A stretch of DNA of 64,000 bases from a bacterium (GTDB lineage Bacteria > Myxococcota_A > UBA9160 > UBA4427), in contig JANOFF010000155.1 in NCBI GenBank assembly GCA_031413515.1, positions 117 through 64,116 of the forward strand, read 5' to 3'. Within the stretch, counting starts at the first letter, position 1. Each line of letters begins with the position of its first letter. Positions 9,230 to 46,019 of this stretch are shown in pieces. Made by a program: the position numbers and the translations under genes. Below the pieces are notes generated by a model, which was given only the letters and a program-made list of their open reading frames with translations, was not told the origin of the DNA and did not search any database.

Positions 9230-9231
9230 AT

Positions 9232-11995: not shown

Positions 11996-11998
11996 CCG

Positions 11999-22436: not shown

Positions 22437-22853
22437 CTAGCCGACCACCCGTTTGCGGATCGCTTCGGGTGTGCGGATCAGCAGTCGCCCCTCCGCGTCG
22501 GTCGAGACCAGCACCGTGTGTCCGCGCGCGCTGCGCCGGTCGTGGTCGATGCTCGTGATCTCGTAGTCGAGGCACAGGCGGTTCTCGAAATCGCGGAGCC
22601 AGGCAGATACCTCGAACCGCTCGCCGTACGCGAGAGGGTGGATGTGTCGGCAGCTGGTCTCCGTGATCAGGAACCTGTAGCGGGTCCCGATCAGTTCGCC
22701 GGCGTCGAGCCCGATGGCTCGCAGAAGACGCGTGCGCGCGATCTCGAAGTACTTGAAGTAGTGCCCGTGCCACACGACTCCGAGCTGATCGACGTCGTGG
22801 AACGGCACTTCGAGCGCGACGCGCACTTCGTGCAGTCGGAGGGTCTCGCTCAT
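22437..22853 (-). CDS. 4HBT/YbgC-type hot-dog acyl-CoA/acyl-ACP thioesterase (ApeK-like)
   Basis: 138 aa. VPFHDVDQLGVVWHGHYFKYFE is the typical 4HBT catalytic-Asp block. ATGA overlap with the ammonia-lyase stop. Confidence 0.85.
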   Translation of the reverse strand: MSETLRLHEVRVALEVPFHDVDQLGVVWHGHYFKYFEIARTRLLRAIGLDAGELIGTRYRFLITETSCRHIHPLAYGERFEVSAWLRDFENRLCLDYEITSIDHDRRSARGHTVLVSTDAEGRLLIRTPEAIRKRVVG

Positions 22854-24421
22854 GCGCGCCGTGGCTCCGAGGCGAGCGAGCTGAACAGGGCGTCACCCCT
22901 TCCTGTCCCCGGCAGCCGACCCTGTCGATGCAGCGACACTGCGGTCCGGATGTCGAGATCCTGCCGACGATCGACGTCGACCATCGGGATCTCGGCCCGT
23001 ACCCGAGCGTGCACGGCCTGCGTGGACGCGCTGAAATCGGCCAGATCGCGGAGATCGACGGCCTGACAGACCGCGAGCAGCAGGATCGCGGCGACGCTCT
23101 CGCTCAGTTCGAGGATCCGCAGGCAGTCGCGGGCCGCGATCGTCCCCATGCTGACCTTGTCCTGATTGTGGGATTCGGTGCTGCGGCTGAACGCGCTCGC
23201 GGGCATGGTCAGCTTCAGGGCCTCCGCGGTCAGCGCCGAAGCGCTGATCTGCATCGCTTTGAAGCCGTGGTGGATCAGTCCCTCCACACCCTTGGCCGCG
23301 ACGAGGTTCTCGGGCAATCCGTCACTGGTTTCGCCACTGCAGAGCAACACGAGCTGTCGGTCGAGCAGATCGGCGACGTTGGCGACGGCGGTCTTGAGCC
23401 CGTCCATCACGAAGCAGACGTGTCCGCCATAGAAGTTCCCGCCGTGCAGCACACGACCCGACTCGGGGTCGATCAACGGATTGTCGTTGACGCCGTTCAG
23501 CTCGGTGGTGAGGATGACGCGGGAGAATTCGAGCGCGTCGACGAGGACGCCGATCACATGCGGCGCGCAGCGGATCGAATAGCGGTCCTGGATCCGCGCG
23601 CTCTTCTGCGATCGATCGTGGCCGAGGTGTTCGCGGATCCAGGTCGCGCAGGCGCGGGATCCCGGATGCGGTTTCAGGGCGAAGATCCGATCGTCGAAGT
23701 GCTCGGGATTGCCATGGATGGCTTCGCTCGTCATGGCGGTCAGCGTCGAGGCGAGCGCCGCCAGGGCGCGGGCCCGCGCGAACGCGAGGCAGGCCAGGCC
23801 CGTCATCATGCTGGTGCCGTTCATGATGGCGAGACTCTCTTTCGGCTCGAGGATGAGTGGTCGAAGGCCGACCTTGGCGTGAGCGGCGGCCGCGCTCATC
23901 TCGTCTCCGCGCAAGGACACCTCGCGTTCGCCGACCAGAGTTGCGGCCAGATACGAGAGCGGGGTCAGGTCGCCGCTGGCACCGACCGATCCCTCGGCGG
24001 GGATGCGCGGCAGCAGTCGCAGATTGATCAATTCGCAGAGTCGTTCGAGCACGCACTCGCGTACGCCCGAATAGCCACGGGCCAGGGAAGCGAGGCGCGA
24101 AGCCACAACGGACACCGACTCCTCTTCGTCGAGGATCCGGCCGGTCCCGACACCGTGGAAACGGAGCAGATTCAGGGGCATGTCGGCGCGCAGGGCAGCG
24201 GGAATCTGGTTGCCCACCGAGGCACCGACGCCGGTCGTGACCCCGTAGATCTCGCGGCCCGACCGCTGAAACTCGGCGACCAGTCGGAGTGATTCGGCGA
24301 TCCGGCGACGGTACTGCGCGTCATCGGACAGCGAGGCCCGCCGCTCCTCCCGCGCCAATCCGACGACGTCCTCGATGGCGAGGTCGCCGTCCCCGAAGCG
24401 AACCTTCTCCACTTCTGCCAT
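22850..24421 (-). CDS. MIO-dependent aromatic amino-acid/histidine ammonia-lyase family enzyme
   Basis: 523 aa from MAEVEK (cat 24419-24421), within ORF 22850..25096. MIO tripeptide in GSVGASGDLTPLS. Also YGVTTGVG and NDNPL blocks. Confidence 0.9.
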   Translation of the reverse strand: MAEVEKVRFGDGDLAIEDVVGLAREERRASLSDDAQYRRRIAESLRLVAEFQRSGREIYGVTTGVGASVGNQIPAALRADMPLNLLRFHGVGTGRILDEEESVSVVASRLASLARGYSGVRECVLERLCELINLRLLPRIPAEGSVGASGDLTPLSYLAATLVGEREVSLRGDEMSAAAAHAKVGLRPLILEPKESLAIMNGTSMMTGLACLAFARARALAALASTLTAMTSEAIHGNPEHFDDRIFALKPHPGSRACATWIREHLGHDRSQKSARIQDRYSIRCAPHVIGVLVDALEFSRVILTTELNGVNDNPLIDPESGRVLHGGNFYGGHVCFVMDGLKTAVANVADLLDRQLVLLCSGETSDGLPENLVAAKGVEGLIHHGFKAMQISASALTAEALKLTMPASAFSRSTESHNQDKVSMGTIAARDCLRILELSESVAAILLLAVCQAVDLRDLADFSASTQAVHARVRAEIPMVDVDRRQDLDIRTAVSLHRQGRLPGTGRGDALFSSLASEPRRA

Positions 24422-26257: not shown

Positions 26258-27877
26258 TCAGACCGCCGGTCGCATCGCCCCGAACACCGCGCTGAGGTGT
26301 TCGCTTCGCGCCGGATCGGCGCAGACGCCCGGCCGGTCGGGCATCCAGAGCGCGGCTTCGGCTCGGATCTCCAGTTGAAGCGCCTCGGCGAGAGCCAGGT
26401 TGGATTCGAGCTTCGCGAGCAACTCGTCTTCGCCGTACGCGTACTTCAGTTCGGCGTTCATCCGGGCCAGGAACTCGATCTCCGCATAGTCGACGAAGGC
26501 GCCGTGACGCGGCTCGCCGTCTCGCGAGTTGGCCGCCCAATCCCTGAAGAGAGCCTGCATGCGGATGTTCAGCGCGGCGAACCGCTGCATGATCGGGTGT
26601 GTCCGCTCGACGAAGCGCTCGTCGCATAGCCGATCGCTGAAGAAGAGAAGAGCGACGCCCCCCCAGTACATCGCGAAATCCCAGATCACCTTGGTGGTCA
26701 TCACGCGGGGGCTGCCCATGATCGGGTACTGGCGGTGGTAGTTGACGAGATAGGTGCGACCGAGGGATCGATACGCGCGGTCGTATCGCACGGCGACTTC
26801 GGAGATGTCTTCGCGGCGGAGATCCCGTGCGATCAGATCGCCCAGATAGCCGTTGCCGACGCCGATGAAATCGCTTCCGGGCGAGTAGAGGGGATCCAGG
26901 AAGAGACCGGCGTCGCCGACGAGCCCCCAGCGCTCGGCGCTGAATACCTGCTTGGCATCGTGCGAATAGTGGCGCAGCGCCTTGAAGTCGAGCCTCGCGT
27001 GTTCGAGGTTTCGTACGACATCGGCACATTGGGGTTCGTGGCGCTCGAGCCAGTCGAGCGCTCGATCGAAGGACGAGATCTCGGCGAACGAGTGCAGCAC
27101 TGCATCCGTCACGATGCCGACGCTCGTCCGGTCACCGGCGAGCGGGATCAGCCATACCCAGTAGCCCTCGCCCATCAGATGGTTGGTCGAGAGTCGTCGT
27201 GAGTGTTTGAGGCGGGAACTCCATTGCAGATCATCTGACCAATCGTCGAGGTCGATCGGGTGATCGATACGGAACCACGCCGCGTTCGCTGCGTGCCGGC
27301 TGGGCTTGGTGCCGCCGAGTTGTCGCTTCAGCAGCGACGCCCTGCCGCTGGCATCGATCAGCCAGCGACACTGCACCTGCTCGCTTCGTCCGCTTCGTTC
27401 GAGCTCGATCCGGTGATCGCGACCTTCTGCGCCGAGGTGCATCCCGCGCACCGCACAACCACGCTCGAAGTGGACTCCGAGCTCGAGTGCGCGGAAGGCG
27501 AGCGCATTCTCGAACTGACCGCGATCGATCTGGAAGCTCGGCACCGTCAGGAAATGGCTCGGGCCACATTCGAGCCGGCTGGCCACGTCCGTGTTGTCGT
27601 CACTGGAGAAGAGGAAGCGCAGTCCGAACTTCGGGAGTTCGTTCGAAAGCAGGTCGCCGAGACCGAGGACATCCACGAAATAGTGGCTGGCCATCTCGAC
27701 CGAAGACTCGCCGACCTTGTGGGCGGCGAAAGGGGCAGGGGATTCGTTCCTCTCGGCCACCAGCACCTGGATCTGCGGGAGGTTCTGTCGCAGCTGGATG
27801 GCGAGGCACAGCCCCGCCAGGCCTCCGCCGACGATCACGGCGTCATAGCGGTCCTGCAGCGCGGAGGGGATCGTCAT
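26258..27877 (-). CDS. flavin-dependent halogenase
   Basis: 539 aa from MTIPSAL (cat 27875-27877). GxGxxG (VIVGGGLAG), catalytic-Lys block HKVGES, WxWxIP (YWVWLIP) and FxxPxxSxG (FLDPLYSPG). Confidence 0.85.
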   Translation of the reverse strand: MTIPSALQDRYDAVIVGGGLAGLCLAIQLRQNLPQIQVLVAERNESPAPFAAHKVGESSVEMASHYFVDVLGLGDLLSNELPKFGLRFLFSSDDNTDVASRLECGPSHFLTVPSFQIDRGQFENALAFRALELGVHFERGCAVRGMHLGAEGRDHRIELERSGRSEQVQCRWLIDASGRASLLKRQLGGTKPSRHAANAAWFRIDHPIDLDDWSDDLQWSSRLKHSRRLSTNHLMGEGYWVWLIPLAGDRTSVGIVTDAVLHSFAEISSFDRALDWLERHEPQCADVVRNLEHARLDFKALRHYSHDAKQVFSAERWGLVGDAGLFLDPLYSPGSDFIGVGNGYLGDLIARDLRREDISEVAVRYDRAYRSLGRTYLVNYHRQYPIMGSPRVMTTKVIWDFAMYWGGVALLFFSDRLCDERFVERTHPIMQRFAALNIRMQALFRDWAANSRDGEPRHGAFVDYAEIEFLARMNAELKYAYGEDELLAKLESNLALAEALQLEIRAEAALWMPDRPGVCADPARSEHLSAVFGAMRPAV

Positions 27878-28623
27878 CCTGCGAGACCGCCGTTCACCGA
27901 GATCACTTGACCCGTGATGTATGACGCGTCGCGCGAAAAGAGGAAGGCAACGGTCCCAGCCACTTCGTCGGCGCGTCCGAATCGCTTCATCGGAATGAGC
28001 CGGGAGAGCTCTTCTCGGGGAAGCCCGGCCACCATCTCGGTGTCGATCAGCCCCGGGGCGACGCTGTTGACGGTGATGCTCCGGCTCGCGAGCTCGAGCG
28101 ACAGGGACTTCGTCGCGCCGATCAATCCCGCCTTGGAGGCGCTGTAGTTGACCTGCCCGCGGTTTCCGAGAACACCGGCCGCCGAGGCGATCGTCACGAT
28201 CCGACCTCCCCGGCGCGCGCGGACCATGGCCATCAGGAGTGGCCGCAGTACGTTGAAGAAGCCGCCGAGGTTCGTGTCCAGGACGCGATCCCATGCGTCT
28301 TCGCTCATGCCCGGAAACGCGGCATCGGCATGCACGCCCGCATTGCAGACCACGCCGTAGTATGCGCCGCTCTTTGCGATGTCCTCTTCGATCGCCGCCC
28401 GGCAGGCGGTGCGATCCGAAACATCGAAGGCGAGCAGTTCCGCTTCGCCGCCGGCCTTCCGGATCGACTCGGCGGTCTCCTCGGCGTCGTCCTGGCGCGA
28501 TCGATAGTTGATGACGACCGGGTGGCCGGCAGCCGCAAGCCTCTGGGCGATCGCGCGACCGATTCCACGACTGGCACCAGTGACCAAGGCTCGTCCGCTC
28601 AAACCAGGCTCCGACCAGGACAC
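27874..28623 (-). CDS. fabG: 3-oxoacyl-ACP reductase (ApeQ-like)
   Basis: GTG 28623. TGASRGIGRAIA, NAG, the Y-x3-K catalytic motif (YSASK) and a C-terminal ITGQVISVNGG. Its stop overlaps the halogenase start (ATGA). Confidence 0.9.
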   Translation of the reverse strand: MSWSEPGLSGRALVTGASRGIGRAIAQRLAAAGHPVVINYRSRQDDAEETAESIRKAGGEAELLAFDVSDRTACRAAIEEDIAKSGAYYGVVCNAGVHADAAFPGMSEDAWDRVLDTNLGGFFNVLRPLLMAMVRARRGGRIVTIASAAGVLGNRGQVNYSASKAGLIGATKSLSLELASRSITVNSVAPGLIDTEMVAGLPREELSRLIPMKRFGRADEVAGTVAFLFSRDASYITGQVISVNGGLAG

Positions 28624-28977
28624 ATCGACGGGACGCGGCCCGTACTGTGCCCCACCGAGATCGACGGCCGAAGGGAGGGCTTCGTGTTTCCTGCGGCTCG
28701 AACCGATCGGGCAAGCATACTCGCGTGTATCCGGCCTCACCACTCGTCGGAGCGCTACGCAGCGGTGATCGCCGACGGGAAGGCCGCACGCGTGACCGAT
28801 CAAGGATGGATCCGGTACTGTACTCGCGCGACGGATATCGCCCGCTGGTCGTCGGTTCGGGTGCTGCGAACGGACGCAGGAATCCGGAACCCGACCTGGA
28901 AATATCTCGATGGATCTGTGGTTCGAGCAGAAAAGCGCCGCCCGCCCCGGACGCGAGGCAGGTCGAGAGTCCTCACG

Positions 28978-30375
28978 GTGAGAGTCGCCTTCATCTCGGG
29001 CAATCGCGAGAAACTTCCGGACGCGGTGATCCCGCTCGGGATCCTCTGGGTGGCGGCGAGCCTCCCGGATCGCCACGCGAAGATCATGCTGGATCTGTGC
29101 TTCGAAGATTCGCCGCTCGAGTTCGTGCGCGATCGGTTGGTGGCCTTCGCGCCGGAAGTCGTGGCGGTCGGCATGCGCAACATCCAATCCGCCGACTACA
29201 GCGGGACCGCCGACACCATCGCCTACTACGAACAGCTCCTCGCGGCCATCCGCGCGTGTACGGCCGCCCCCATCGTGATGGGCGGGAGCGGGTTCTCCGT
29301 GATGCCGGGCGATCTGATGCGAAGACTGCGGCCCGACTATGGGATCGCGGGCGAGGCCGAGAAGTCGTTCCCGGCGCTCATCGAAGCACTCGAGTCGGGA
29401 GTCGGATTCTCCGCGATCGGCAACCTCCATCGCTTCGTGGACGGAGAACTGGTCTCGAATCCCCCGGCCAGGGGCTTCCTCGACATGGACACGTTGCCCT
29501 TTCCCGATCGATCGCTCGTGGACCCGCGCCACTACGCGGAATACGGCATCGAGGGAGTGCAGACCAAGCGCGGCTGTCCGCTGCGATGCGAGTACTGCAC
29601 CTATCCGATCATCGAAGGACGCGTCGGCCGGACTCGCGCACCGTCGGTCGTGGTCGATGAACTCGAGTCGATCCTCCGGGACCAGCCCGCTCTCAAGCAC
29701 GTCTTCTTCGTCGACTCGGTCTTCAACCTGCCGCGTGCGCATGCCAAATCGGTGTGCCGCGAGATGATCGAGCGCGACGTGAAGATCCCGTGGACCTGCT
29801 ACGCGAATCCACTGGGGTTCGACGCCGAACTCGCGAAGCTGATGAAGGCCGCCGGCTGCGCTGGCATGGAGGTGGGCGCCGATTCGGGCTCGGATCGTCT
29901 GCTCGATGCTCTCGGCAAGGGATTCACGACCGAGCAGATCCGGTCGCTGAGTCGCCTCGCCAAAGAAGAGGGAATCCCCGACTGCCACACCTTCCTGCTC
30001 GGAACGCCGGGCGAAGACTTCGACGACGTCCAGCGTACGCTCGAGTTCATTCTCGACCTCGATCCGTTCAGCGCCATCCTGATGGCCTGGGTGGACGACT
30101 ACGAGGCGCTCGATCCGGAACTGGCGCGCGAGCGCAGGAAGCTGCGCGAGTCCGTTCTCGAACTGCTCGATGCGCGCAAGAGCGAGTTTCCCTGGTGGAG
30201 CATTCCTTCGCTCGGTGTCAACTACGACCCGGCGCTGTTCTCGATCCTGCGCAAGCGGGGATTCCACGGACCGCTCTGGCAGCACATCCGCGGGATGGTC
30301 GCTCCGCGCAGGCGCCGTGCCCGGCGGATCGGTGATCGCGGAAGACAGGTGTCCACCGGAACGTCGAGCACTTGA
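28978..30375 (+). CDS. B12-binding-domain (class B) radical SAM enzyme
   Basis: GTG 28978 (MRVAFISGN...) within ORF 28330..30375. N-terminal Rossmann-like cobalamin domain, then CPLRCEYCTYP (CxxxCxxC). Confidence 0.85.
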   Translation: MRVAFISGNREKLPDAVIPLGILWVAASLPDRHAKIMLDLCFEDSPLEFVRDRLVAFAPEVVAVGMRNIQSADYSGTADTIAYYEQLLAAIRACTAAPIVMGGSGFSVMPGDLMRRLRPDYGIAGEAEKSFPALIEALESGVGFSAIGNLHRFVDGELVSNPPARGFLDMDTLPFPDRSLVDPRHYAEYGIEGVQTKRGCPLRCEYCTYPIIEGRVGRTRAPSVVVDELESILRDQPALKHVFFVDSVFNLPRAHAKSVCREMIERDVKIPWTCYANPLGFDAELAKLMKAAGCAGMEVGADSGSDRLLDALGKGFTTEQIRSLSRLAKEEGIPDCHTFLLGTPGEDFDDVQRTLEFILDLDPFSAILMAWVDDYEALDPELARERRKLRESVLELLDARKSEFPWWSIPSLGVNYDPALFSILRKRGFHGPLWQHIRGMVAPRRRRARRIGDRGRQVSTGTSST

Positions 30376-30446
30376 TGCAGAGCAACGAGGTTGGACGGAC
30401 CCGGTACCGGGCGCAGGAGCGACCGTCACCACTCGAGGAGGATGAA

Positions 30447-30893
30447 ATGCGGGCAGCCAGGAAGGGCCAGGTTTCCGGAAATCGCGCGATGCTGTTGATC
30501 GTCGTCGCGGTGCTGGTCGGATCGGTGGGATCCGTGATTTCGTGTGCGTCCGACGTTCCGCCCACGGTGACGAGGAACTACGGATTCCCGATCGAGAAGA
30601 AGATGGACATCTTCGTGATGACGCCCGACGAGAGGCCCCGGATCACGGAGTCGCTGACGAAAGTCGGTCTCAAACCGGTCGAAGCGCGAACTACGGTCGG
30701 CTACACGCTCGATATCCGGCTGGGCGGCAATCGACGCACACAGGCCTGCGGAAGCGTCCGCAACGTCACGTACATCCTGAGCGGACCGACTGGACGAATG
30801 CTCGTCATCAAGGGACGCGGCCCGACGGGCACCTGTCAGCCGAACATCCTCGACCAGATGAGCGCGAAACTCGCCTCGCTGGCCACGTCCTGA
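30447..30893 (+). CDS. lipoprotein, unknown function
   Basis: Start at MRAARKG (ATG 30447). Signal plus lipobox-like VISCAS. 148 aa. Confidence 0.6.
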   Translation: MRAARKGQVSGNRAMLLIVVAVLVGSVGSVISCASDVPPTVTRNYGFPIEKKMDIFVMTPDERPRITESLTKVGLKPVEARTTVGYTLDIRLGGNRRTQACGSVRNVTYILSGPTGRMLVIKGRGPTGTCQPNILDQMSAKLASLATS

Positions 30894-30936: not shown

Positions 30937-32025
30937 CTATGAGGGCGGGTCGTGTCTGACCGATGTGAGCACGGATCGCCCGATCAGGAAGACGACGCCG
31001 GGCAGCATCCAGAGGATCTCGCGAAGTCGGACCGCGAGTCCCACCGCCAGGCCGACATCCGCGGGATAGCCGAGCATCTCGAACATCCACATCTGTGAGC
31101 CCTCGAGCACGCCGACCCCGGCCGGTATCGGGAACATGTGCGCGGCGCCGGTGGCGAACATCGCGGCCACCACCGTGATGGGGGTCGTGGGGAGATCGAA
31201 CGCCTCGAGGAGGCACACGAACTCCACGACCACCAGCAGATTCGCGAAGAGCCCGGCCGCGAAGGCCACGCCCATCCTGCGGTGCTGTCTCGACAACACC
31301 GCCGTCGATGATTCGGCGTGCTCGATGTGGTCGCGTTGCGCATCGACGATCGGCCAGCGAGAAGCGCCCGTGCTCCGCATCAAGGCGCTGACGAGCCCGG
31401 CTCCACTGCGGAGGCGTCGCACCGCGATGACGACGCCGAGTGTGAGGGCGATCGTCCCGACCGCAATGCTCACGAGCACGTTCTCCAGCCGGGGCACACC
31501 GTACTGCAACAGCATCACGGCGAACATGATGCTGAATGGCGTCGCCGCACCGATCTCGAGCGTCCGATCGACCACCGTACTCGCGATCGAATGGCCGGCC
31601 GAGAGTCCAGAGCGACTGCTGAGCCACGCTCGCAGCGGATCGCCACCGAGCTTCGCGCTCGGGATCAGCACGGCCAGGGTGTGTGCGGCGCTTCGATACA
31701 GGGTCAGGATCGGCAGGCTGGGCGGTGTCGAGAGCCCGCCGATGATGTACCGCCAGCGCCATGACAGACAGACGATCGTCGCGGTCGTCGCGATCGCGAA
31801 GCTCGCGAACCAGCCCGGCGAGAAGTCGAGCCGCAGGATTGCCACGGCCTGCGAACCATACGCCCGCATCACGTATGCGAGCACCCCGACGCCCAACGCC
31901 AGGTTGCCCCAGATGAACAGCCGCGAGCGGGTGAGCAGCCGTGAGCCGGTGAACAGCCGTGAGCGAATGGACAGCCGTGAGCGGGATCCAGGAGAACCCG
32001 AGCCGTTCGCTTGCCTGGACGTCAC
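30937..32025 (-). CDS. UPF0104 / flippase-like (LPG-synthase TM-type) membrane protein
   Basis: 362 aa with about 8 TM helices. KLGGDPLRAWL and GVGVLEGS blocks are typical of this family. Arg/Ser/Leu hexapeptide repeats at the N-terminus. Confidence 0.7.
   Translation of the reverse strand: MTSRQANGSGSPGSRSRLSIRSRLFTGSRLLTRSRLFIWGNLALGVGVLAYVMRAYGSQAVAILRLDFSPGWFASFAIATTATIVCLSWRWRYIIGGLSTPPSLPILTLYRSAAHTLAVLIPSAKLGGDPLRAWLSSRSGLSAGHSIASTVVDRTLEIGAATPFSIMFAVMLLQYGVPRLENVLVSIAVGTIALTLGVVIAVRRLRSGAGLVSALMRSTGASRWPIVDAQRDHIEHAESSTAVLSRQHRRMGVAFAAGLFANLLVVVEFVCLLEAFDLPTTPITVVAAMFATGAAHMFPIPAGVGVLEGSQMWMFEMLGYPADVGLAVGLAVRLREILWMLPGVVFLIGRSVLTSVRHDPPS
31913..31984. repeat. imperfect 18-bp tandem repeat x4 at the 5' end of the UPF0104 gene
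   Basis: ATGAACAGCCGCGAGCGG / GTGAGCAGCCGTGAGCCG / GTGAACAGCCGTGAGCGA / ATGGACAGCCGTGAGCGG. Encodes the RSRLxx repeats. Confidence 0.85.
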
Positions 32026-32044: not shown

Positions 32045-33232
32045 TCAGAACGCGGGGGTGGGACTCGTCGCCTGGACCGGTGCGTATCCGTCGATCGTCG
32101 CCCCGATGGCGAGGCACTCGCCGAGAATCACCTCGAAGGGTCGCTGATCCACGACCTCGAACTGGCTGGCCTCGATTTCGAATCGCGCGCCGGCTTCGTC
32201 GTACGGCGCGACACCGGGCGAACCCGCCGTGAGCACGCCGATGATCGGCAGCAGGCGCTGCTGGATCTCGCGCGCCTCACGGGTCGAGATCACGACCTTC
32301 GCATCGGGGAAGCGCGCGGAGAGCAGGGCGACCACGCGTGCGAGATCGTCGTCGCTGACGCCGCGACGATGCTCGGCCCCGCTCGCCTTCCGGAGGCGCG
32401 GCAAGCTGATGTAGACCTGCAGGCCGAGCGCGGTGAGGTGTCGGACGTGCGCGCAGAGAGTGATCAGCTCGTAGGCGAGGTCGTGGTTGAGCCCGAGCAG
32501 GACACCAGGATTGACGGACCGCATGCCCGCTTCGGCAGCGCGATCGAAGTTCTGCAGCCTGCGCTCGAATCCGCAACGCGGATTGTCCGGCGTCGACCCC
32601 ATGAACTTGGCGTAGACGGTCGGGTCGTAGGTCTCCTGGAACGTGCACATCGTGACGTGCGGCGCGAGGGCGTCATCTCCGTCGCGGGCGATCCCGGTCA
32701 GCAGTCCCGCGTACTCGTCGGCATCGATCGATCCGACGTTGATCAGGACGTGCGAGAAGCCTCGATCGAGTGCAGCGCGCGTCGCCGCTGCGGCGCGCTT
32801 CAGCATGGTCTGGCGTCGTGCTCCGTGGCGATACTCGCCGGAGAGCACGGCCACTGCACGGATGCCGCGGCGATGCAGGATGTCGAGTTGCTCGTCGACC
32901 GTGGCCTGATCGGCGGTCTCGCGCTTCAGCGCGCGATTGTTCGACCGCATGCCGCACATCAGACACTCGCCGTCGCATTCGTTGGTGATGTAGAGCGGCG
33001 AGAAGGTCTCGATCTGCGGTGGTCCGACGGGACGCCGGGCTCGCGCGATCCCGATCAACTCATCCGTCGGCAGATCCTTCGAGAGGAGGAGAGTCGCCAC
33101 CGAGACGTCATCCAGCGCCTCACCCGAGCGAAGTCGCGCGGCCAGTGCCGGTGCTGCGCCGTCCCGGGCGCGTGCGGCAGCCAGTGCGCTGTCTTTCGCG
33201 ATCGCGTCGGAATCAATCGAGAAGTGGGGCAT
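32045..33232 (-). CDS. ThiH/HydG-family radical SAM enzyme (aromatic amino-acid lyase-like)
   Basis: 395 aa. Cluster motif ITNECDGECLMCG. Downstream blocks FQETY, LPRLRK and ISTREA resemble ThiH-type TIM-barrel radical SAM lyases. No C-terminal second-cluster Cys motif (so unlike HydG). Confidence 0.75.
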   Translation of the reverse strand: MPHFSIDSDAIAKDSALAAARARDGAAPALAARLRSGEALDDVSVATLLLSKDLPTDELIGIARARRPVGPPQIETFSPLYITNECDGECLMCGMRSNNRALKRETADQATVDEQLDILHRRGIRAVAVLSGEYRHGARRQTMLKRAAAATRAALDRGFSHVLINVGSIDADEYAGLLTGIARDGDDALAPHVTMCTFQETYDPTVYAKFMGSTPDNPRCGFERRLQNFDRAAEAGMRSVNPGVLLGLNHDLAYELITLCAHVRHLTALGLQVYISLPRLRKASGAEHRRGVSDDDLARVVALLSARFPDAKVVISTREAREIQQRLLPIIGVLTAGSPGVAPYDEAGARFEIEASQFEVVDQRPFEVILGECLAIGATIDGYAPVQATSPTPAF

Positions 33233-33244: not shown

Positions 33245-34681
33245 TCACCGAGTGGGACGCTTGGCCACTCGCAGGTCACGTCGCAGTCTGCGTTTGCGCA
33301 GTGCGCCGCGCACCCCACGGGACAGCATCTCGAGCAGTTCGCGCAGGCCGATGCTCGGCCACTCGATCAGGCCCTGGCTGATCGAGATCAGCTGACGTCC
33401 CGGACGCGTCCAGTTGCTCACGAGCACCGGCTTGTAGACGCTCGGGCTCCGCCCGATCTGACCGACGTCCAACACCGAATTCGGAAGTGTGCACTCCACC
33501 TCGACCGGGATCTCTCCGAGATGCGAGCGCAGTGCGTCCAGGGCCACAGCGGTGCGCGTCGAGCGGGGATCAGGCACCTCGATGCGGAAAACCAGCCGAT
33601 CCGGCATCGCGATCGCGAAGAATATCGAGCTGTCGAGGGCATCGGCGGCGGCCGCACCGGCCTCGATGATCTCGTAGGGGTAGAGGCCTCGTCCGGCCAG
33701 CTCGACGATCTCGCTTTCGCGGCCGAGCACGATGATGCCGGGACGCGGATCGCCACACGCGCAGGGCGCGAGCCGCCGGACGATGTCGCCGGTCTCGAAG
33801 CGCACGAGAGGGCTGCCCTCGATGCCGAGCGTCGTGACGATCAGCCGGGCCTCCTCGCCGATCGCGGCCTGCTCGTCGCGGTCGAGCCTCTGAAACTCGC
33901 AGTGCGACAGTTCGGTCTCGAGATGCAGCGTCCGCTCGCGACACCCCGTGCCGAGCAGCATCGTCTCGGTCGATCCGTAGAGTTCGATCACCCGGGCGCC
34001 ACCGTAGATCCGTTCGATGCGCTTCTGCAGAACCGGCGGCAGGGGCGAGCCGCCGAGGAAGAACGTCTCGAACGCCGTCGCTCTGGCGGGATCGAGTCCG
34101 CGCGCCCTGGCGATCTGCGCCAGGATGATCGGCTCGATCGGAAAGCCCGCGAGCACGTGCGCGCCGGTGCGCTGCGCCAGTTCGAGTGCGCGCGGGAACG
34201 GCACGTCCCAGTTGATGTTGCCCGCGGGTATCGAGACCCCGCCGCCCTGCTGCGCGACCAGTTGGATGAGATGCGCGGGTGCGGCCATGAAGGGAAAGCG
34301 GTTCAACACGATCTTGCCCGCTGCGAACACGTCGGGATGTCGCTCCGCGATCCGCCGGGCATTGCGCGTCAAGTCATCACTCGTGAGCCAGGTCGAGTTG
34401 GCTCCGCCCGCACCGCCCGAACTGGTGCCCGAAGTCTCGCCGTAGTGGCAGATCCGTTCGATCGGCACCGCGCGCGTGCCGGTCAGCCCGGCTCGCTGGA
34501 GATCGGCCCGCGTCGTCAGGGCGATCCGTCCGAATGCTTCGAGATCGGTCAGCTGGACGTCGCGCAACCGGTCGGCATACAGCGCGCTGTGTCGCGCGCG
34601 GGCGACTGTCTGGCGGAGAGCGTCGAGCACTTCCATGCCCGGACCCGAAATGCTAACAGTCCGCTCGATCGCGCTGATCAT
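33245..34681 (-). CDS. PaaK / coenzyme F390 synthetase-like adenylate-forming enzyme
   Basis: 478 aa from MISAIE (cat 34679-34681). ANL blocks (YGSTE, FETGD, a Lys-containing tail). The P-loop is expanded and Gly/Ser-rich (ETSGTSSGGAGGANS). Confidence 0.75.
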   Translation of the reverse strand: MISAIERTVSISGPGMEVLDALRQTVARARHSALYADRLRDVQLTDLEAFGRIALTTRADLQRAGLTGTRAVPIERICHYGETSGTSSGGAGGANSTWLTSDDLTRNARRIAERHPDVFAAGKIVLNRFPFMAAPAHLIQLVAQQGGGVSIPAGNINWDVPFPRALELAQRTGAHVLAGFPIEPIILAQIARARGLDPARATAFETFFLGGSPLPPVLQKRIERIYGGARVIELYGSTETMLLGTGCRERTLHLETELSHCEFQRLDRDEQAAIGEEARLIVTTLGIEGSPLVRFETGDIVRRLAPCACGDPRPGIIVLGRESEIVELAGRGLYPYEIIEAGAAAADALDSSIFFAIAMPDRLVFRIEVPDPRSTRTAVALDALRSHLGEIPVEVECTLPNSVLDVGQIGRSPSVYKPVLVSNWTRPGRQLISISQGLIEWPSIGLRELLEMLSRGVRGALRKRRLRRDLRVAKRPTR

Positions 34682-34746
34682 CAAACGGAATCCTGCACCA
34701 TATGCGTCGAGCTGGTCAAGTACGCCGCACCCGTCGGGCGGACGCC

Positions 34747-36480
34747 GTGCGGCTGATCGGCATGCTGCTCGCGCTGCTCGCGCCGTATGCCGCACACTCG
34801 GATGCCTGGGATGAGTCGCGAGCGCGTCTGATCGATCCGCTCAACGCGGCGCTGCATCGCCATTGGCCCGCGGAACTGAAGAACCGGAACATCGACGCGC
34901 TGCTCCGCCTCTACTCGACCGAGACGGGGACGGGGATCACGTGGCAGGATCCGGAGCGGGTCGAGAGCCCGGGCACCGAGCCGACGCTGCGCTGGTCGAC
35001 TGCGCCGGGTGAACGGGGCGAGCGGAGCGACGAGTCGATCCGCGACCGATACACGAAGTTGCTCGAATACTTCGAATCGATCGACAAAGCCGAACTGCGC
35101 ATCGAGCGGGTCGATTGGCGCCACCCCGGGCCTCTCGGCCACCGGGCGACCGTGCACGCGGTCATCAAGGGCACGAGTCCCGAGGGCGAACTCCGGCAGA
35201 TGGAGCAGTGGGCCACGCTGTACGTCCGCTTCTTCGATCCCTTCTGGGAGATCACCTCTGAAGAAGTCACCGGTCGTACGATGGTGACGCGCGCGACTCC
35301 GCGGTTCACGTACCGGACCGACGCTGCCGGGATCGAGAACGTGCACGCGAACGTCGCGTCCCCGCCGTTCCGGTTGTTCGGCAAGAACGACGACAATCCC
35401 GTCCGTCAGGCGTCGGGTGTGGCGGTGGGTGACGCCGACGGTGATGGCTGTGAGGATCTCGTTCTCGCGGGCAGCCCATTGCTTTCCTTCCATCGCAGCC
35501 GCTGCGATGGCACCTATGAAGACGCCACCGCCTCCTCAGGGCTCCCCTTCCCCTATCCCGCAGCGGCTTCCGGCGTGGTCTTCTTCGACTACGACAACGA
35601 TGGAAGGCAGGATCTTTTCGTCACCGCGGTCAAGGGCGGCGATCGTCTGTTCCGCAATGTGTCGGAGGTGGACTCTCGCGATGGGACGCGCCGCGCCTGG
35701 CAGTTCGTCGACGTGACCGGGCAAGCGGGTCTCGAGCCCGGTCGATGGGGCAGCATGCCCGTCATCGCGGACTACGATCGCGACGGATATCTCGATGTGT
35801 ACGTCTCGCGCATGGGCGACCACGAGCACACCGCGCCGCGCCCGCCCTATGACGCGCGTAACGGCGTGCGCGGAACGCTGTTGCGCAATCGCGGAGACGG
35901 CACGTTCGAAGACGTTTCCCGTGCGGCCGGTGTCGACAGTCCGGGTTGGGACATGGCCGCTGCGTGGGGGGACTACACGGGAGATGGCTGGCCCGACCTC
36001 TACGTCGCCAACGAGTTCGGCAACAACCGCCTGTTTCGCAACGAGCAAGACGGGACGTTCACGGATCAGACCGCCGTCGCGGGAGTCGAGGATGGCGGCT
36101 CGGCGATGGGGACGTCATGGGGAGACGTCGATGGCGATGGTGATCTCGACCTCTTCGTCTCCGGGATGCACGCCAACTCGGGGTGGACGCTCTTCCATCC
36201 CGATTTTCCGATGCCGATCCCTTGGTACTACCGGTTCCTCGGTCGCTTCACCGACGCCGTGCAGATCCAGTCCGACATCCTCACCGACCGGCTTTCCCGG
36301 GGCAGCGCGCTGTTCATGAATGCTGGCGACGGGACATTCGCCGACATCAGCGACAGCGCGGGTATCCGCGATGGTCAGTGGGGCTGGGGAAGTGCGTTCC
36401 TCGACTACGACAACGACGGCGATCTCGATCTCTATGCGGTGAACGGGTTCGTGACCGGACCCATAGAAGACGACGTTTGA
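34747..36480 (+). CDS. CRTAC1-family FG-GAP/VCBS repeat protein, N-terminal 578 codons (ends at in-frame TGA)
   Basis: GTG 34747 gives the signal peptide VRLIGMLLALLAPYAAHS (ORF opens at 34702; ATG at 34762). Repeated DxDxDGxxD Ca-binding FG-GAP motifs (GDADGDGCEDL, DYDNDGRQDL, DYDRDGYLDV, GDVDGDGDLDL, DYDNDGDLDL). Confidence 0.8.
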   Translation: MRLIGMLLALLAPYAAHSDAWDESRARLIDPLNAALHRHWPAELKNRNIDALLRLYSTETGTGITWQDPERVESPGTEPTLRWSTAPGERGERSDESIRDRYTKLLEYFESIDKAELRIERVDWRHPGPLGHRATVHAVIKGTSPEGELRQMEQWATLYVRFFDPFWEITSEEVTGRTMVTRATPRFTYRTDAAGIENVHANVASPPFRLFGKNDDNPVRQASGVAVGDADGDGCEDLVLAGSPLLSFHRSRCDGTYEDATASSGLPFPYPAAASGVVFFDYDNDGRQDLFVTAVKGGDRLFRNVSEVDSRDGTRRAWQFVDVTGQAGLEPGRWGSMPVIADYDRDGYLDVYVSRMGDHEHTAPRPPYDARNGVRGTLLRNRGDGTFEDVSRAAGVDSPGWDMAAAWGDYTGDGWPDLYVANEFGNNRLFRNEQDGTFTDQTAVAGVEDGGSAMGTSWGDVDGDGDLDLFVSGMHANSGWTLFHPDFPMPIPWYYRFLGRFTDAVQIQSDILTDRLSRGSALFMNAGDGTFADISDSAGIRDGQWGWGSAFLDYDNDGDLDLYAVNGFVTGPIEDDV

Positions 36481-37091: not shown

Positions 37092-37859
37092 TCAGCCGAC
37101 GATGTCGTGGTCGAGACACCAGACCGGTTCGCGTGGGTCGCCCGCGAACTCGAGTGCGACGGTACCCGTTCGTTGCTCGACGATGTGTTCGATCAGGGGC
37201 ACCGCGGCCGCCACGTGAAGGGATCCGAACGGCGCCCGCAGCGCCACCGGATCCACGTTCGCACGCCGGATCCGGCTCAGCACGGAGGTCGCTCCTTCGG
37301 GTCTCGGCGAGAGCAGCAGCGACAGTGCGAGTGGGACGCTCGAATCCGGCAGCTCGAATGGCGGTAGCAGCGGCTCGTCGGCGATCACGAGGATCACGTC
37401 GCGATCCCAAGCTTCGAGCATGCACGCCGCCTCGATGATCGCTGAGGCAACGAGTTCGGCACCGCCGGTGAGGGTCGTGGACGGCGAGCGGTTGCCCGTC
37501 GCGATCGACGCGTAACCGCTCGCGGTGTTGTGCACCGAGTTGTGGAACTTGGTCGGAGACAGCTTGCCTTCACCGTGCTGCATCATCTCGAGCAGTCCGA
37601 TCGCCATCGAATGCTCGCCGTGCGCAGTCGCCCAGACACTCGCCAGCTCGGTCGGATCGGCGTCGCCCATGCGCGCCGCCTGTTGCAGGACTTCGATTCC
37701 CATCCGCGTGAGCGGAGTCGCGCGTCGACGAAGCGCCCCGGCCAGGAGCGGCGCCTCCGGTGTGCTCGCGGTGGCATCGAGGTCCCGTGCGCACCACGCC
37801 TTGGGGTTCGCGTAGCCGGTCGTCCAGAAGCCGACCCCGCGCACGTACACGGGCTTCAT
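37092..37859 (-). CDS. beta-ketoacyl synthase N-terminal-like / chain-length-factor-type protein (ApeC-like)
   Basis: 255 aa from MKPVYVRGVG (ATGA overlap with the KS stop). KS-like fold with no active-site Cys motif. The FHNSVHNTASGY block is typical of APE CLF-like partners. Confidence 0.8.
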   Translation of the reverse strand: MKPVYVRGVGFWTTGYANPKAWCARDLDATASTPEAPLLAGALRRRATPLTRMGIEVLQQAARMGDADPTELASVWATAHGEHSMAIGLLEMMQHGEGKLSPTKFHNSVHNTASGYASIATGNRSPSTTLTGGAELVASAIIEAACMLEAWDRDVILVIADEPLLPPFELPDSSVPLALSLLLSPRPEGATSVLSRIRRANVDPVALRAPFGSLHVAAAVPLIEHIVEQRTGTVALEFAGDPREPVWCLDHDIVG

Positions 37860-39040
37860 CGGTCGGCTCCGAAGACGAGGCTCACGTTGCTGCCGCCAAA
37901 TGCGAACGAGTTGCTGAGACCGACGTGAAGGTTCCGCTCGCACACACTCGTCGGCACGTTGAGTCCGAGGCCCGGCTCGAGCGGATCGGCACCGACGCTC
38001 GCGGGCGTCCAGCCACCGCGCAGGGCTTCGAGGACGAATATCGCTTCCATCGATCCGGCCGCTCCGAGCGTATGACCGACGTAGCCCTTGGTCGAGACCA
38101 CGATCGGGTCCGCGTCCGGTCCGAGTGCCGTGCGGATCGCCCGGGCCTCCATCGCATCATTGAACTGGGTTCCAGTGCCGTGGGCATTCAGATAATCGAC
38201 GGATCCGGGTGCGACTCCGGCATCGGCCAGCGCAGCCCGCATGGCCGCCGCCGCGCCATGGCCCTCGGGATCCGGTGTGGTCATGTGGTGCGCGTCCGAA
38301 CTCTCTCCGACACCGAGCAGTCTCGGCCCGTCGCCCCTGCGTTCGAGCAGCGCGAACGCAGATCCTTCACCGATGTTGATGCCGCAGCGTTCGCTGCTGA
38401 ACGGGCGCGACGGTCCCTCGGACAGGAGACCCAGTGAACGGAATCCTCGCAGGGTGAGCTGACAAAGACTGTCGGCACCACCGACCAGGACCGCATCCAC
38501 CAGATCGGCGTCGAGCCAGCGCTTCGCACTCGCGAACACTTTGCCGCTGGACGCACAGGCATTCGACACGACAGCCGCAGGACCAGTCGCACCCGTCAAT
38601 GCGCGCAGCGCGCGAATCAGTCCGTCCGCTGAGCCACGGGACAGCACGTCGAAGCCGGCGGGAATCGAGCCGGTCCGTGCGTGAGCGGTGAAGGCCGCCT
38701 CGATCTCGTCCATGGCCGCGGTACTCGATCCCACGCAGATCCCCACGCGCTGCGCGCCCCAGCGTGCGAGTGCGCCGACCAGGTGATCGGACATCTCGCC
38801 GAGTGCGCGTTGCACGAAGCGGTTGTTGCGCGAGTCGAAGGCGGCGAGTCGGCCTTCGAGCGGCGGAAGGTCCGCGGTGACCACTCCGCACGCTGTCACG
38901 AAGCCGGTGCCTTCGGGCGGCGCGGAGAGCGCCGGTCGGCCGCGGCGAAGGCCGGCCATCACCTCTGCCGTGGTGGTTCCGAGCGAGTTGACGATCGACC
39001 AGCTCGTGACCGGATAGCCGATTGTTCCGCGATCACCCAC
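37856..39040 (-). CDS. beta-ketoacyl-ACP synthase (FabB/F-like, ApeO-like)
   Basis: 394 aa with a GTG start. Active-site NACASS Cys, HMTTP and NAHGTGT His residues, and C-terminal NSFAFGGSN. Confidence 0.9.
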   Translation of the reverse strand: MGDRGTIGYPVTSWSIVNSLGTTTAEVMAGLRRGRPALSAPPEGTGFVTACGVVTADLPPLEGRLAAFDSRNNRFVQRALGEMSDHLVGALARWGAQRVGICVGSSTAAMDEIEAAFTAHARTGSIPAGFDVLSRGSADGLIRALRALTGATGPAAVVSNACASSGKVFASAKRWLDADLVDAVLVGGADSLCQLTLRGFRSLGLLSEGPSRPFSSERCGINIGEGSAFALLERRGDGPRLLGVGESSDAHHMTTPDPEGHGAAAAMRAALADAGVAPGSVDYLNAHGTGTQFNDAMEARAIRTALGPDADPIVVSTKGYVGHTLGAAGSMEAIFVLEALRGGWTPASVGADPLEPGLGLNVPTSVCERNLHVGLSNSFAFGGSNVSLVFGADR

Positions 39041-39127
39041 GCAACCCGATCCCTTCGTTGGCCGCCAAGGCTCGCGTGCAGGTCCTGCACCGATCGACGA
39101 AGCCAGCCCGCAACCCGAGAAGGGCCG

Positions 39128-39799
39128 TCAACGCGATCCTCCCTCCGGTTTCGTGTCGTGCTTCGCGGGCCCCTCTTCGTCGAGGATCACGATGGAAGCG
39201 TCGTACCCGCACCATTCGTTCTGGATCTCGATGCGCCCGCTGCGGTCGGTCGCCGGCGGCGGAGAGTAGTTGATCGTGACACCCACGACAGCCGGGGCGG
39301 GATCGGTCCGGATGAACTCGCGCCTCCGTCGATCGCCGCTGCGTGATTCACGCAGCGTCTCGCCGGCCCATTCCGTATCCCGCACCGTGTCGGCCTGGAC
39401 GGCGCTCGCGGGCTCGATCCAATGGCTCCGATACAGCGCGTCCACCACCCAGAGGGCGACGTGTCGAAGCATTGGCGAAGGCGTCGGCTCGACCTGGAAG
39501 TCCCGATCGATCTGGCGCACTGCGAAGAGCCGCGCTCCGGTCGGTGAGAGCCCGACGACGATCAACTGATCCTGATGCGCGCGGGCGACGATGTCGAAGC
39601 CGACGCGCTTCCCGTGACTCCGGATCTCGATCTGCGCGCGCAGGTTGGCCTCGTCGCCGAGCAACTGACTGGCGACAGGCACCACCGGGCATCCCGGCTC
39701 GCCAGTCGGCGGGATCCCGGTCGCGCACCCGGAAAGGCACGAGAACAAGAGCACTCCGACCCACAGGAGGCCATGCGGCCGCGATCCGACGACACTCAT
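39128..39799 (-). CDS. lipoprotein of the DUF3261 type found in APE clusters (ApeN-like)
   Basis: Start at MSVVGSRPHGLLWVGVLLFSCLSGC (lipobox), with ATGA overlap to the MMPL stop. Position between MMPL and KS matches APE synteny. Confidence 0.65.
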   Translation of the reverse strand: MSVVGSRPHGLLWVGVLLFSCLSGCATGIPPTGEPGCPVVPVASQLLGDEANLRAQIEIRSHGKRVGFDIVARAHQDQLIVVGLSPTGARLFAVRQIDRDFQVEPTPSPMLRHVALWVVDALYRSHWIEPASAVQADTVRDTEWAGETLRESRSGDRRRREFIRTDPAPAVVGVTINYSPPPATDRSGRIEIQNEWCGYDASIVILDEEGPAKHDTKPEGGSR

Positions 39800-42123
39800 G
39801 CGCGTCTCGCCAGACCGAGGACCGGAATCGCGATCACGAGCGCGAGCAGCACACCGAGACCCGTCGTCAGACCTATGGACCTGAGGATCGGCTGCGACGA
39901 CAGCGCGAGCACACCGAACACTGCCACCGAAGTGAGACACGAGAGCAGCAGGCTGGAGAGCATCGCGCCCAGTCTTTCGTCATCGTGTGCGGTATCCACG
40001 GCGAAGACCCCGTAGTCCACACCCATTCCCAGGACGACCAGCAGGCTGATGCTCGACACCACGTTCACCGGGGTGCCCAGCAAACCGAAGAGTCCGAGTG
40101 TCGTTGCGGCACCGAGCATCGCGGGTGTGAACGCAAGCAGTCCACGCGTCGTGCTCCTGTACCGGACCAGAAGCAAGGCCAAGATCACGACGGCGCCGAT
40201 GAGAAGGGTCCGCACGGTCGAACGGCGGATCCCCTCGTAGATGCCCGTCATGATCTCCTGCTGATCCACGTAGTACGCGCCCTCCAGTCCGGCCAGCGCA
40301 GACTCGATCGCGGTTCCGGAGCGGACGCCCCGCAGCAGGGTGACCACACCGACGTCGCCGTCGAGTTCGACGAGCGAGGCGAGCACTCGCCGAAGCGGGG
40401 AATCCTCGAGATCCTCGGGCAGCAAGGGGCCGACGTCCGGTGAACGGACGGCGTCGGTGAACGGGACGAAAGCCTCGGGCCTGAACCCGGCGGTCGAGTA
40501 GGCGACGTCGATCCGTGCCGCGAGATCCGGTTCGGCCTGGAGCGCGGCGAGATTGCGTTGCTGCAGCGCATTCGAGAACAAGAATGTCCGCAACGACCCG
40601 ATGCCCTCGAGAGCCCCTGTGCCGACGATCGGATCGAGTCGGTCGGCGATCTGCTCGTTCAGGACCAATGCCGCTTCGCGATCCGCTGCGACTCCGACGA
40701 CGAAGCGCCCGCCGTCGAACTCCCCGATCCGTTTCTGTACGCGGCTGGCCTCCGCGAGAACCGCCGCATCCATCTCCATGAACCTGGACGGATCATCCAC
40801 CCAGTGCAGCCGCGGGATTCCCACGGCTGCGATCGCCAGAAACAGGATCAATGATGCGTAGAGGGGACCCTGCCGCTGCCCGGTCCAAGTCGTCAGACGG
40901 ACCAGTGACGACGAGAGGGCGAGCTGGATCGCGGTCGGAGACACGGGATTGCGAAGGAAGGCCGGCAGGCCCAGAAAGGTGAGGACGAGCGTGACGGCCA
41001 CGCCGATCGCCGTGAAGGTCCCCATCTCACCGAGCCCCGGAAACGAGCTCATGGACAGCGACAAGAAGGCGAGCGAGGTCGTCACGCCGGACACGATCAG
41101 CGACTTCCGGATCGTGGCAAGAGTCTCGCGAGGCGATCTTCCCCCGGTCGACAGCGCGTGATGGTTCATGAGATGGATCGGGTAGTCGATCGCCACGCCG
41201 ATCAGCACGAAGCCGAACGCCAGCGTGATGCCGTGGACCTCGTCCGATCGCGTGATGTCGACGGTGAGTGCGGCCAGGAACCCGATCAGCGGCGTGACGA
41301 TCGCGATCAGCAAGTGGCGGAGCGAGCGGAACACGATGAGGAACAGAGCGCAGACGACGGTGGTCGAGAGGGTCGACATCGAGTTGACGTCGGTCCGCAC
41401 GCTCTTCTCGGCGGCGACCGAGAACAGATTGATGCCGCTCCGCTCGAGGACGACTCCACCGCCATGCTGCGTGCTGAGACTGGCGAACTCCGAATCGACG
41501 AGCTCGATCAGCCCGACCTGTCGGGCTGAATCGAACGGTGAGGATCGCAACCCGATCTGGAGAATCGTCCAGCCCCGACCATCCGACTCGACGATCTGCC
41601 CGGACGATCGAAACGCTCGCGCGCGATCGATGATCCGGCCGAAGAGATCGAGCGGGTCGCGCGAGGCGAGTCGTGAAACCAGCATCGCGTCCGGGCCGGT
41701 GAGGCGCTCACGCAGACGCGCGGCATTCGCGTCGAGAGCGCTCGGGGCGAACAGCAGCGGAACCTCGACTTCCGGATGCTCCGAAGCAAAGTAGACGAGT
41801 CGATCGAAGTACAGATCGTGGATCGCGACGAGGTCGTCTGCGTCGAGTTCTTCTTCGACCCACGCCACCTCGGGATGGGCGCGCACCCGTGAGGCGAGTT
41901 CGCGCGAGACGAGCTCGCGTTCCGGACCGCCTTCGATCGCAAGGACCATCCGACGGGTCAGGGGCGAATCGACCAGGTCGAGCGAGAGCTGGACCAGCCG
42001 GGCGTCCACGTGGGCGGGAATGAAATGCGTGATCGAACCGGTCAGCTCGAGGTTCCGCGCGCAGTAGAGGCCGAGCGCGGCGAGCAACGCCAATGTCAGG
42101 ATCCGGATGCTTCGATCACTCAT
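39796..42123 (-). CDS. MMPL/RND-superfamily exporter (ApeM-like)
   Basis: 775 aa from MSDRSIRIL (cat 42121-42123). Two 5-6 TM bundles separated by large periplasmic loops. Confidence 0.85.
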   Translation of the reverse strand: MSDRSIRILTLALLAALGLYCARNLELTGSITHFIPAHVDARLVQLSLDLVDSPLTRRMVLAIEGGPERELVSRELASRVRAHPEVAWVEEELDADDLVAIHDLYFDRLVYFASEHPEVEVPLLFAPSALDANAARLRERLTGPDAMLVSRLASRDPLDLFGRIIDRARAFRSSGQIVESDGRGWTILQIGLRSSPFDSARQVGLIELVDSEFASLSTQHGGGVVLERSGINLFSVAAEKSVRTDVNSMSTLSTTVVCALFLIVFRSLRHLLIAIVTPLIGFLAALTVDITRSDEVHGITLAFGFVLIGVAIDYPIHLMNHHALSTGGRSPRETLATIRKSLIVSGVTTSLAFLSLSMSSFPGLGEMGTFTAIGVAVTLVLTFLGLPAFLRNPVSPTAIQLALSSSLVRLTTWTGQRQGPLYASLILFLAIAAVGIPRLHWVDDPSRFMEMDAAVLAEASRVQKRIGEFDGGRFVVGVAADREAALVLNEQIADRLDPIVGTGALEGIGSLRTFLFSNALQQRNLAALQAEPDLAARIDVAYSTAGFRPEAFVPFTDAVRSPDVGPLLPEDLEDSPLRRVLASLVELDGDVGVVTLLRGVRSGTAIESALAGLEGAYYVDQQEIMTGIYEGIRRSTVRTLLIGAVVILALLLVRYRSTTRGLLAFTPAMLGAATTLGLFGLLGTPVNVVSSISLLVVLGMGVDYGVFAVDTAHDDERLGAMLSSLLLSCLTSVAVFGVLALSSQPILRSIGLTTGLGVLLALVIAIPVLGLARRA

Positions 42124-46013: not shown

Positions 46014-46019
46014 AGGGGC

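Follow-up and report, generated by a model that had tools for sequence, protein, structure and literature searches.

The gene of interest encodes a class B (B12-binding) radical S-adenosylmethionine (SAM) enzyme of a myxococcotal bacterium (Myxococcota_A; UBA9160; UBA4427), and lies in a 64,000-nucleotide stretch of contig JANOFF010000155.1 (assembly GCA_031413515.1), hereafter the window. The window has a G+C content of ~66% and holds a full aryl-polyene-type cluster, with genes of three kinds: (i) starter-related genes, for a tyrosine ammonia-lyase (TAL)-like lyase, a 4HBT thioesterase and a halogenase, (ii) core and tailoring genes, for FabG, a pair formed by a chain length factor (CLF)-like Ketoacyl-synt_2 protein and a ketosynthase (KS), an acyl carrier protein (ACP), a fusion of an aryl-AMP ligase with an ApeI-like dehydratase, and an ApeP-like dehydratase, and (iii) lipid-linking and export genes, for an acyltransferase, a family 2 glycosyltransferase (GT2), a DUF3261 protein, an MMPL exporter and a LolA-like protein. 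Groups (ii) and (iii) comprise every component looked for as a mark of an aryl-polyene cluster.

The radical SAM gene is a GTG-started frame of 465 codons without internal stops. The GTG is taken as the right start because all orthologues align from residue 1; the alignments run to residue ~440, and the Arg-rich tail (the last ~25 residues) is not conserved among the orthologues. Pfam identifies a B12-binding domain (PF02310, residues 13–134; 40.7 bits, cut-off 32.1) within an N-terminal B12 domain of about residues 1–135, and a Radical_SAM domain (PF04055, residues 197–358; 84 bits, cut-off 29.5). These are followed by a conserved C-terminal domain with a GPLWQH motif at its end. The B12-Rossmann domain and radical SAM TIM barrel expected of a class B member are seen both in the Pfam matches and in an AlphaFold (AF2) model of the protein (pLDDT 85, pTM 0.86). 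Within the CPLRCEYC sequence, the three cluster cysteines of the CxxxCxxC motif (C200, C204 and C207) are invariant in 30 aligned sequences. A preliminary description of the locus had named a 465-residue class B radical SAM enzyme with a CPLRCEYC core, and both domains, matching above their cut-offs, bear this out. We are highly confident that the protein works in the aryl-polyene pathway, as a tailoring enzyme of the class B radical SAM type.

Assigning the protein to a family revealed that no curated model claims it at its cut-off. The highest NCBIfam score is that of TIGR04072 (268.3 bits against a cut-off of 360, over model positions 1–350 of 443), followed by BzaD (TIGR04385; 198.9 bits, cut-off 450), the TsrM family (TIGR04428; 135.8 bits, cut-off 500), PhpK (111 bits), HpnJ (109 bits), AprD4 (96 bits) and BchE (89 bits); HpnR scores 40 bits, and the cut-offs of these last five models are 481–650 bits. 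BchE, HpnJ and other identities from unrelated pathways were rejected on family scores and gene context. In a large protein collection, the best 120 relatives are 62–100% identical to the protein, carry generic names only, and come mostly from Myxococcota metagenome-assembled genomes. Orthologues occur sporadically in Myxococcota. Of 401 genomes sampled, 26 have one: in 24 the match is full-length, with at least 500 bits (51–75% identity), and in two it is partial because the contig ends there. The next match in the sample falls to 321 bits (39% identity), and the rest score at most 235 bits and cover residues 1–370 only. Three of the weaker matches reach 318–353 bits on TIGR04072 over the full length of the model, and are thus near-threshold members of that family, while orthologues at 51–55% identity score 240–255 bits over positions 1–350, as does the query.

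TIGR04072 (rSAM_ladder_B12; Kuste2803-type proteins of candidate ladderane clusters) shares with the protein its architecture and its location in a cluster resembling type II fatty acid synthase (FAS) or polyketide synthase (PKS) systems. TIGR04072-like paralogues in Myxococcota genomes are 34–40% identical to the protein, and the RN, CxxYCxYPxxEG, VDSVFN and C-terminal GPLW motifs are present in both. The differences are the sub-cut-off score, the partial cover of the model, and a separate clade: in a quick maximum-likelihood tree, all 36 orthologues (48–92% identity) group together (SH-aLRT 95) apart from the TIGR04072-like sequences, with long branches leading to the paralogues. Because of the gap in TIGR04072 score and this separation in the tree, the protein belongs, as judged from sequence comparison, to a clade that has no name and is sister to TIGR04072, and that lies in one wider group with TsrM and BzaD.

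Comparison with solved structures points to TsrM (thiostrepton tryptophan 2-C-methyltransferase; PDB 6wte/6wtf), which is the best match both when the single sequence is compared (119 bits) and when a profile built from 30 orthologues is used (168.8 bits, E 1.8e-48). Foldseek with the AF2 model also returns TsrM first (E 3e-28, TMq 0.69, 27–28% identity), followed by MgmA, OxsB, AprD4, CysS and TokK. The two proteins have in common a lower-axial Arg and a C-terminal Gxx(F/L)WxH motif; unlike TsrM, the protein here is ~100 residues shorter and belongs to a pigment-lipid cluster rather than a thiopeptide one. The R67-N68 pair is invariant in the clade and aligns with R69-N70 of TsrM, in which R69 is the residue beneath cobalamin; enzymes other than radical methylases typically have a hydrophilic lower cobalamin face (PMC12931638). 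Two further TsrM residues are replaced. At the position of Glu273, the fourth cluster ligand, the clade has Val248 (Gln in two of the sequences), and at that of Glu236, which in TsrM stands between cobalamin and the cluster, it has an invariant Tyr209. Radical methylases have a hydrophobic residue at the second of these sites (PMC12931638). Because Arg67 is TsrM-like and Val248 and Tyr209 are not, the clade combines TsrM-like with radical-type features. BzaD, of B12 lower-ligand biosynthesis, offers a likeness of another kind in that it is a predicted sp2 C-methylase of 5-methoxybenzimidazole, a small aromatic substrate (PMC12931638); it differs in that its cut-off is not reached and in its pathway context.

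The genomic surroundings of the orthologues were compared across genomes and metagenomes. The eight genome loci at 63–80% identity all lie in aryl-polyene clusters, and share an arrangement of halogenase-FabG, the divergent radical SAM and lipoprotein genes, and then the flippase-like, NosL-like and ligase genes, with CLF, KS, DUF3261, MMPL and LolA coming next in several. Among the 17 more distant genome loci (51–62% identity), about 12 place the gene within a few kb of LolA, MMPL, KS, CLF, 4HBT, TAL or FabG; in these 17 loci there is no NosL-like operon and no lipoprotein gene, and as a rule no halogenase gene. A metagenome scan found at least 591 relatives among 600 pattern-matching stretches checked, and 80 were kept (48–76% identity), 48 of them with at least 4 kb of flanking DNA. 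A strict aryl-polyene marker occurs at 31 of these 48 loci, and a cluster-type gene of any kind at 38. Hence the co-occurrence with aryl-polyene core genes that the preliminary description had suggested checking does exist; the link to an unrelated pathway that it had envisaged as an alternative, such as bacteriochlorophyll or hopanoid synthesis, is not seen, most orthologues being in aryl-polyene-type clusters. The pairing with fabG and halogenase, which it had stressed, holds in the closest clade (at least 62% identity) but not beyond, where chorismatase, 4HBT, aryl ligase, membrane protein or LolA/MMPL genes adjoin instead.

Clustering of the neighbouring open reading frames found no universal partner gene, and the lipoprotein, NosL-like, flippase-like and halogenase partners are confined to the closest clade. 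Three recurrent neighbours are absent from the window: an FkbO/Hyg5-type chorismatase, a phosphopantetheinyl transferase (PPTase), and a multi-pass membrane protein without a Pfam match. The chorismatase (FkbO/Hyg5 N-domain) lies at most 1.5 kb away in 16 of 78 loci whose flanks extend for 3 kb or more. In 11 metagenome loci it stands directly upstream on the same strand, its match ending 8–68 nt before the radical SAM start (e.g., chorismatases L116:3717–4766, L126:2993–3949, L130:5919–6911 and L151:6525–7574), and several further loci have it beside the radical SAM gene in divergent orientation. The chorismatase-linked loci are spread over several subclades, including the deepest. XanB2, a chorismatase that we take to be of this FkbO/Hyg5 N-domain type, supplies 3- and 4-hydroxybenzoate starters for xanthomonadin. 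A starter-unit gene of some kind (chorismatase, TAL, 4HBT, aryl ligase or NosL-like) is found within 3 kb in 40 of the 78 loci. One TIGR04072-like paralogue (L054) begins 4 nt after a 4-coumarate-CoA-ligase-like gene. The multi-pass membrane protein (~250 residues) is found near the orthologue in 19 loci (e.g., L107:3974–4726), nearly all of them in the 48–54% identity subclade; it is often preceded by the PPTase gene and is possibly an ApeG-type membrane protein.

In four distant loci, no cluster gene was detected by tblastn, and their neighbours were then examined with Pfam. In L041 (L041:7622–8923), the orthologue forms a divergent pair with another B12 radical SAM gene that differs strongly from it, alongside a thiolase gene, and no aryl-polyene gene is nearby. 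L042 has a PlsC-type acyltransferase gene as neighbour, and L049 unrelated genes. In L044, a gene for a 511-residue membrane protein with a PEMT/ICMT-like methyltransferase C-terminus (L044:8421–9956) ends 19 nt 5' of the orthologue start.

Known aryl polyenes and flexirubins bear ring methyl groups. In the aryl-polyene clusters of E. coli and Vibrio, a class I SAM methyltransferase of the ApeB type methylates the ring of the aryl head group. Its place in the pathway would match the one proposed here for the radical SAM enzyme, but its fold and chemistry are unrelated, and the contig holds no such gene. Indeed, a six-frame search of the window's whole contig found no class I methyltransferase domain (PF13649, PF00891; other methyltransferase folds were not searched), and the same search of the whole genome gave 57 Methyltransf_25 and 4 Methyltransf_2 matches, none of them on this contig. 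The cluster had been described as being without an ordinary SAM methyltransferase, and for class I folds this is correct. The only other B12 radical SAM paralogue in the host genome (G000:C112:117461–118504; L002:1012–2583, minus strand) is 30% identical, has ApyD/PhpK/BchE-like scores, and adjoins a sub-threshold class I methyltransferase match (26.5 bits, cut-off 27).

Within the same family of bacteria, the radical SAM orthologue is found in seven of eight other genomes checked that carry a CLF type orthologous to that of the window (at least 300 bits); the genome of the sole exception is 71% complete. A second cluster type, with a more distant CLF, lacks the orthologue within the fetched region in nine of 11 loci, and has it near the cluster in the remaining two. 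Six of the nine, all from one genus, carry an O-methyltransferase gene (PF00891) between the halogenase and CLF genes, which was found in none of the orthologue loci screened with it. The pattern fits a common methylating role for the O-methyltransferase and the B12 enzyme, but we give it little weight. In the loci of this kind (L062–L064, L066, L067 and L069; e.g., L067:7892–8920), which have no B12 enzyme, the O-methyltransferase has a dimerisation domain, and the majority hold two halogenase-like genes.

Of the single hypotheses on the reaction, the best is that the enzyme uses cobalamin to C-methylate the ring of the aromatic starter or head group. We put it forward tentatively, with a little less than even confidence, on the strength of the nearest characterised relatives as methylases of aromatic sp2 carbons (TsrM, and BzaD by prediction), the starter-gene neighbourhood and the missing methyltransferase. 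The domain architecture, the cofactor motifs, the fold, the clade structure and the repeated co-location with aryl-polyene and aryl-starter genes are shown; cobalamin use, methyl transfer and the nature of the substrate are inferred, as follows. Methylcobalamin would carry the methyl group of SAM to an sp2 carbon of the starter or head group. This substrate, free or carrier-bound, would derive from a hydroxybenzoate, coumarate or tyrosine, and would be methylated before or during its use as a primer for the polyene. The product would be a ring-methylated aryl polyene, here probably also halogenated, which would then be lipid-linked and exported by the LolA/MMPL module.

Several points weigh against ring methylation. 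The replacement of Glu273 and Glu236 by Val248 and Tyr209 means that the TsrM mechanism is not simply transferable. To our knowledge, no member of the clade or of TIGR04072 has a known reaction, and the class B members BchE, HpnJ and OxsB perform non-methylating chemistry. CobS was not found in the host genome (96% complete), and the cofactor would need to be imported; the genome has one cobalamin riboswitch, elsewhere than in the window, and the host probably does import cobalamin. A single genus supplies the O-methyltransferase pattern, which bears on O- rather than C-methylation. Finally, the immediate neighbours of the orthologues vary, and about one quarter to one third of loci have no recognised aryl-polyene gene nearby (L041, L044 and L049, and 10 of the 48 metagenome loci).

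A different target is conceivable: the enzyme may act not on the ring but on the polyene or acyl chain on the ACP, or on the finished lipid, to introduce a methyl branch, or to form a C–C bond or a ring by radical chemistry. We consider this possible but unlikely. The best family match is TIGR04072, members of which lie in FAS/PKS-like clusters and for which a role in cyclisation has been proposed, never shown (PMC2649909, PMC13459092), but that match is below cut-off and covers only positions 1–350 of 443, and the clade is separate. Several loci have the gene in line with LolA/MMPL/DUF3261 or beside KS, while among specific neighbours those for starter units are the most frequent, and 11 loci show coupling to a chorismatase. 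The residues also point both ways: Val and Tyr in place of the two Glu residues of TsrM are as in radical-type methylases, but the lower-axial Arg is assigned by a review to enzymes that carry out no radical methylation (PMC12931638). The preliminary description had proposed C-methylation or cyclisation of the aryl polyene or its lipid anchor; the C-methylase relatives support the first of these, to be read as an inference still, and nothing found is specific to a lipid anchor.

Non-methylating radical chemistry on an aromatic precursor (rearrangement, decarboxylation, dehydration or ring coupling), which we judge quite improbable, would agree with the existence of class B enzymes that have other reactions (PMC12931638), with AprD4 as the second-best solved match, and with the NosL-like neighbour in the closest clade, which does unusual aromatic chemistry. 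In this reading, cobalamin would serve as an electron sink or go unused, as in OxsB or AprD4. Against it, PF02310 scores above its Pfam cut-off, the TsrM-type Arg-Asn pair is invariant, and AprD4, OxsB, BchE and HpnJ are far under BzaD and TsrM on the family models. That the gene has no functional link to the pathway, its position being an accident of genome arrangement, is very improbable. Around the orthologues of L041, L044 and L049, no aryl-polyene gene could be recognised within 10 kb, and neighbours are not constant, but co-location persists over 48–92% identity, and across many environments, gene orders and pathway partners. Alongside ring methylation as such, the clade might carry out an undescribed class B reaction on hydroxybenzoate-type starters or aryl-polyenyl-ACP, such as ring coupling, cyclisation or a hybrid polar/radical methylation. 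This idea, improbable in our estimate, arises because the TsrM-like Arg is kept while the iron site is open and a Tyr stands where TsrM has Glu.

B12 radical SAM genes in ladderane-type clusters were described in 2009 (PMC2649909); TIGR04072 ('lipid biosynthesis B12/radical SAM') models them, and recent reviews list them as of unknown reaction. 'Ladderane' biosynthetic gene cluster calls in Myxococcota have also been reported. Such genes in aryl-polyene or 'ladderane-type' clusters have been known since that year, none with a known reaction, and the products of the widespread clusters of this kind outside Proteobacteria and Bacteroidota are also not known. Our search of the literature on aryl polyenes or xanthomonadin in connection with B12, cobalamin or radical SAM enzymes yielded no characterisation. 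The separate sister clade, the residue pattern relative to TsrM and the frequent chorismatase coupling are new here, no paper on these having been found. From the chorismatase-radical SAM unit of 11 loci, one would predict that two enzymes lead from chorismate to a methylated hydroxybenzoate. If true, ring methylation would assign a role to a family that counts hundreds of environmental members, inform work on the sister TIGR04072, and explain aryl-polyene clusters without a conventional methyltransferase. An undescribed reaction, if that is the case, would provide a first handle on the enzymes of TIGR04072 and 'ladderane-type' lipid clusters.

The features of the locus are collected in Table 1.

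Table 1. Annotated features around the radical SAM gene (window coordinates).
Feature	Position	Strand	Basis and remarks
4HBT hot-dog thioesterase	22437..22892	-	
Aromatic amino acid ammonia-lyase (TAL-like)	22850..24421	-	Pfam/NCBIfam; start inferred from orthologue alignment starts
FAD-dependent halogenase-like protein, Trp_halogenase family	26258..27886	-	Pfam/NCBIfam, related loci
FabG-type 3-ketoacyl-ACP reductase (ApeQ equivalent)	27874..28623	-	Pfam/NCBIfam
Divergent intergenic spacer, fabG/radical SAM gene	28624..28977	.	Rfam, promoter and repeat scans
Class B (B12-binding) radical SAM enzyme, 465 aa	28978..30375	+	Pfam, NCBIfam, alignment, AF2 model
Small lipoprotein, 148-aa precursor	30447..30893	+	Signal peptide, lipobox Cys, 2 further conserved Cys
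LPG_synthase_TM/flippase-like membrane protein	30937..32025	-	
NosL/ThiH-like radical SAM enzyme	32045..33232	-	TIGR04158 259 bits, ThiH 147 bits, both below cut-offs
PaaK/F390/BagE-like adenylating ligase	33245..34795	-	
CLF-like (Ketoacyl-synt_2) and ketosynthase pair, aryl-polyene type II system	37092..39127	-	
DUF3261, MMPL exporter, LolA-like protein (ApeN/M/L-type export module)	39128..43081	-	
Acyltransferase, ACP, AMP-ligase/ApeI-like dehydratase fusion, GT2, unknown open reading frame, ApeP-like dehydratase	43101..48251	+	

The FabG protein scores 358 bits on TIGR01831, above the cut-off of 339. The radical SAM gene had been described as divergent from fabG across a 354-bp spacer; the coordinates agree, with 354 bp as the maximum because FabG orthologue alignments start only at residues 6–11. 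No cobalamin riboswitch or other Rfam family was found in the spacer, and no riboswitch anywhere in the window; scans of the spacer also gave no sigma-70 consensus and no notable repeats. On the other side, the small lipoprotein gene of the preliminary description is real, as judged by the signal peptide and lipobox, but its start has shifted: the ATG at 30447, with GAGGAGGA in front, is the probable start rather than the TTG at 30372. The lipobox Cys and two more Cys are kept in nine related loci. Between the B12 radical SAM gene and the KS genes stand the genes for the NosL/ThiH-like enzyme, the adenylating ligase and the flippase-like protein.

Two further observations concern the window at large. 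An aa3-type cytochrome c oxidase operon (COX2, COX1, COX3 and COX4) lies at 8216–12601; the host is probably aerobic or facultative, despite the two oxygen-sensitive radical SAM enzymes in the cluster. An in-frame TGA at 36478–36480 splits an FG-GAP/ASPIC-UnbV gene, and its position is kept in four related genomes (L003:12548, L004:17503, L005:17294 and L009:17389). Such conservation is more readily explained by a read-through or selenocysteine codon than by a sequencing error.

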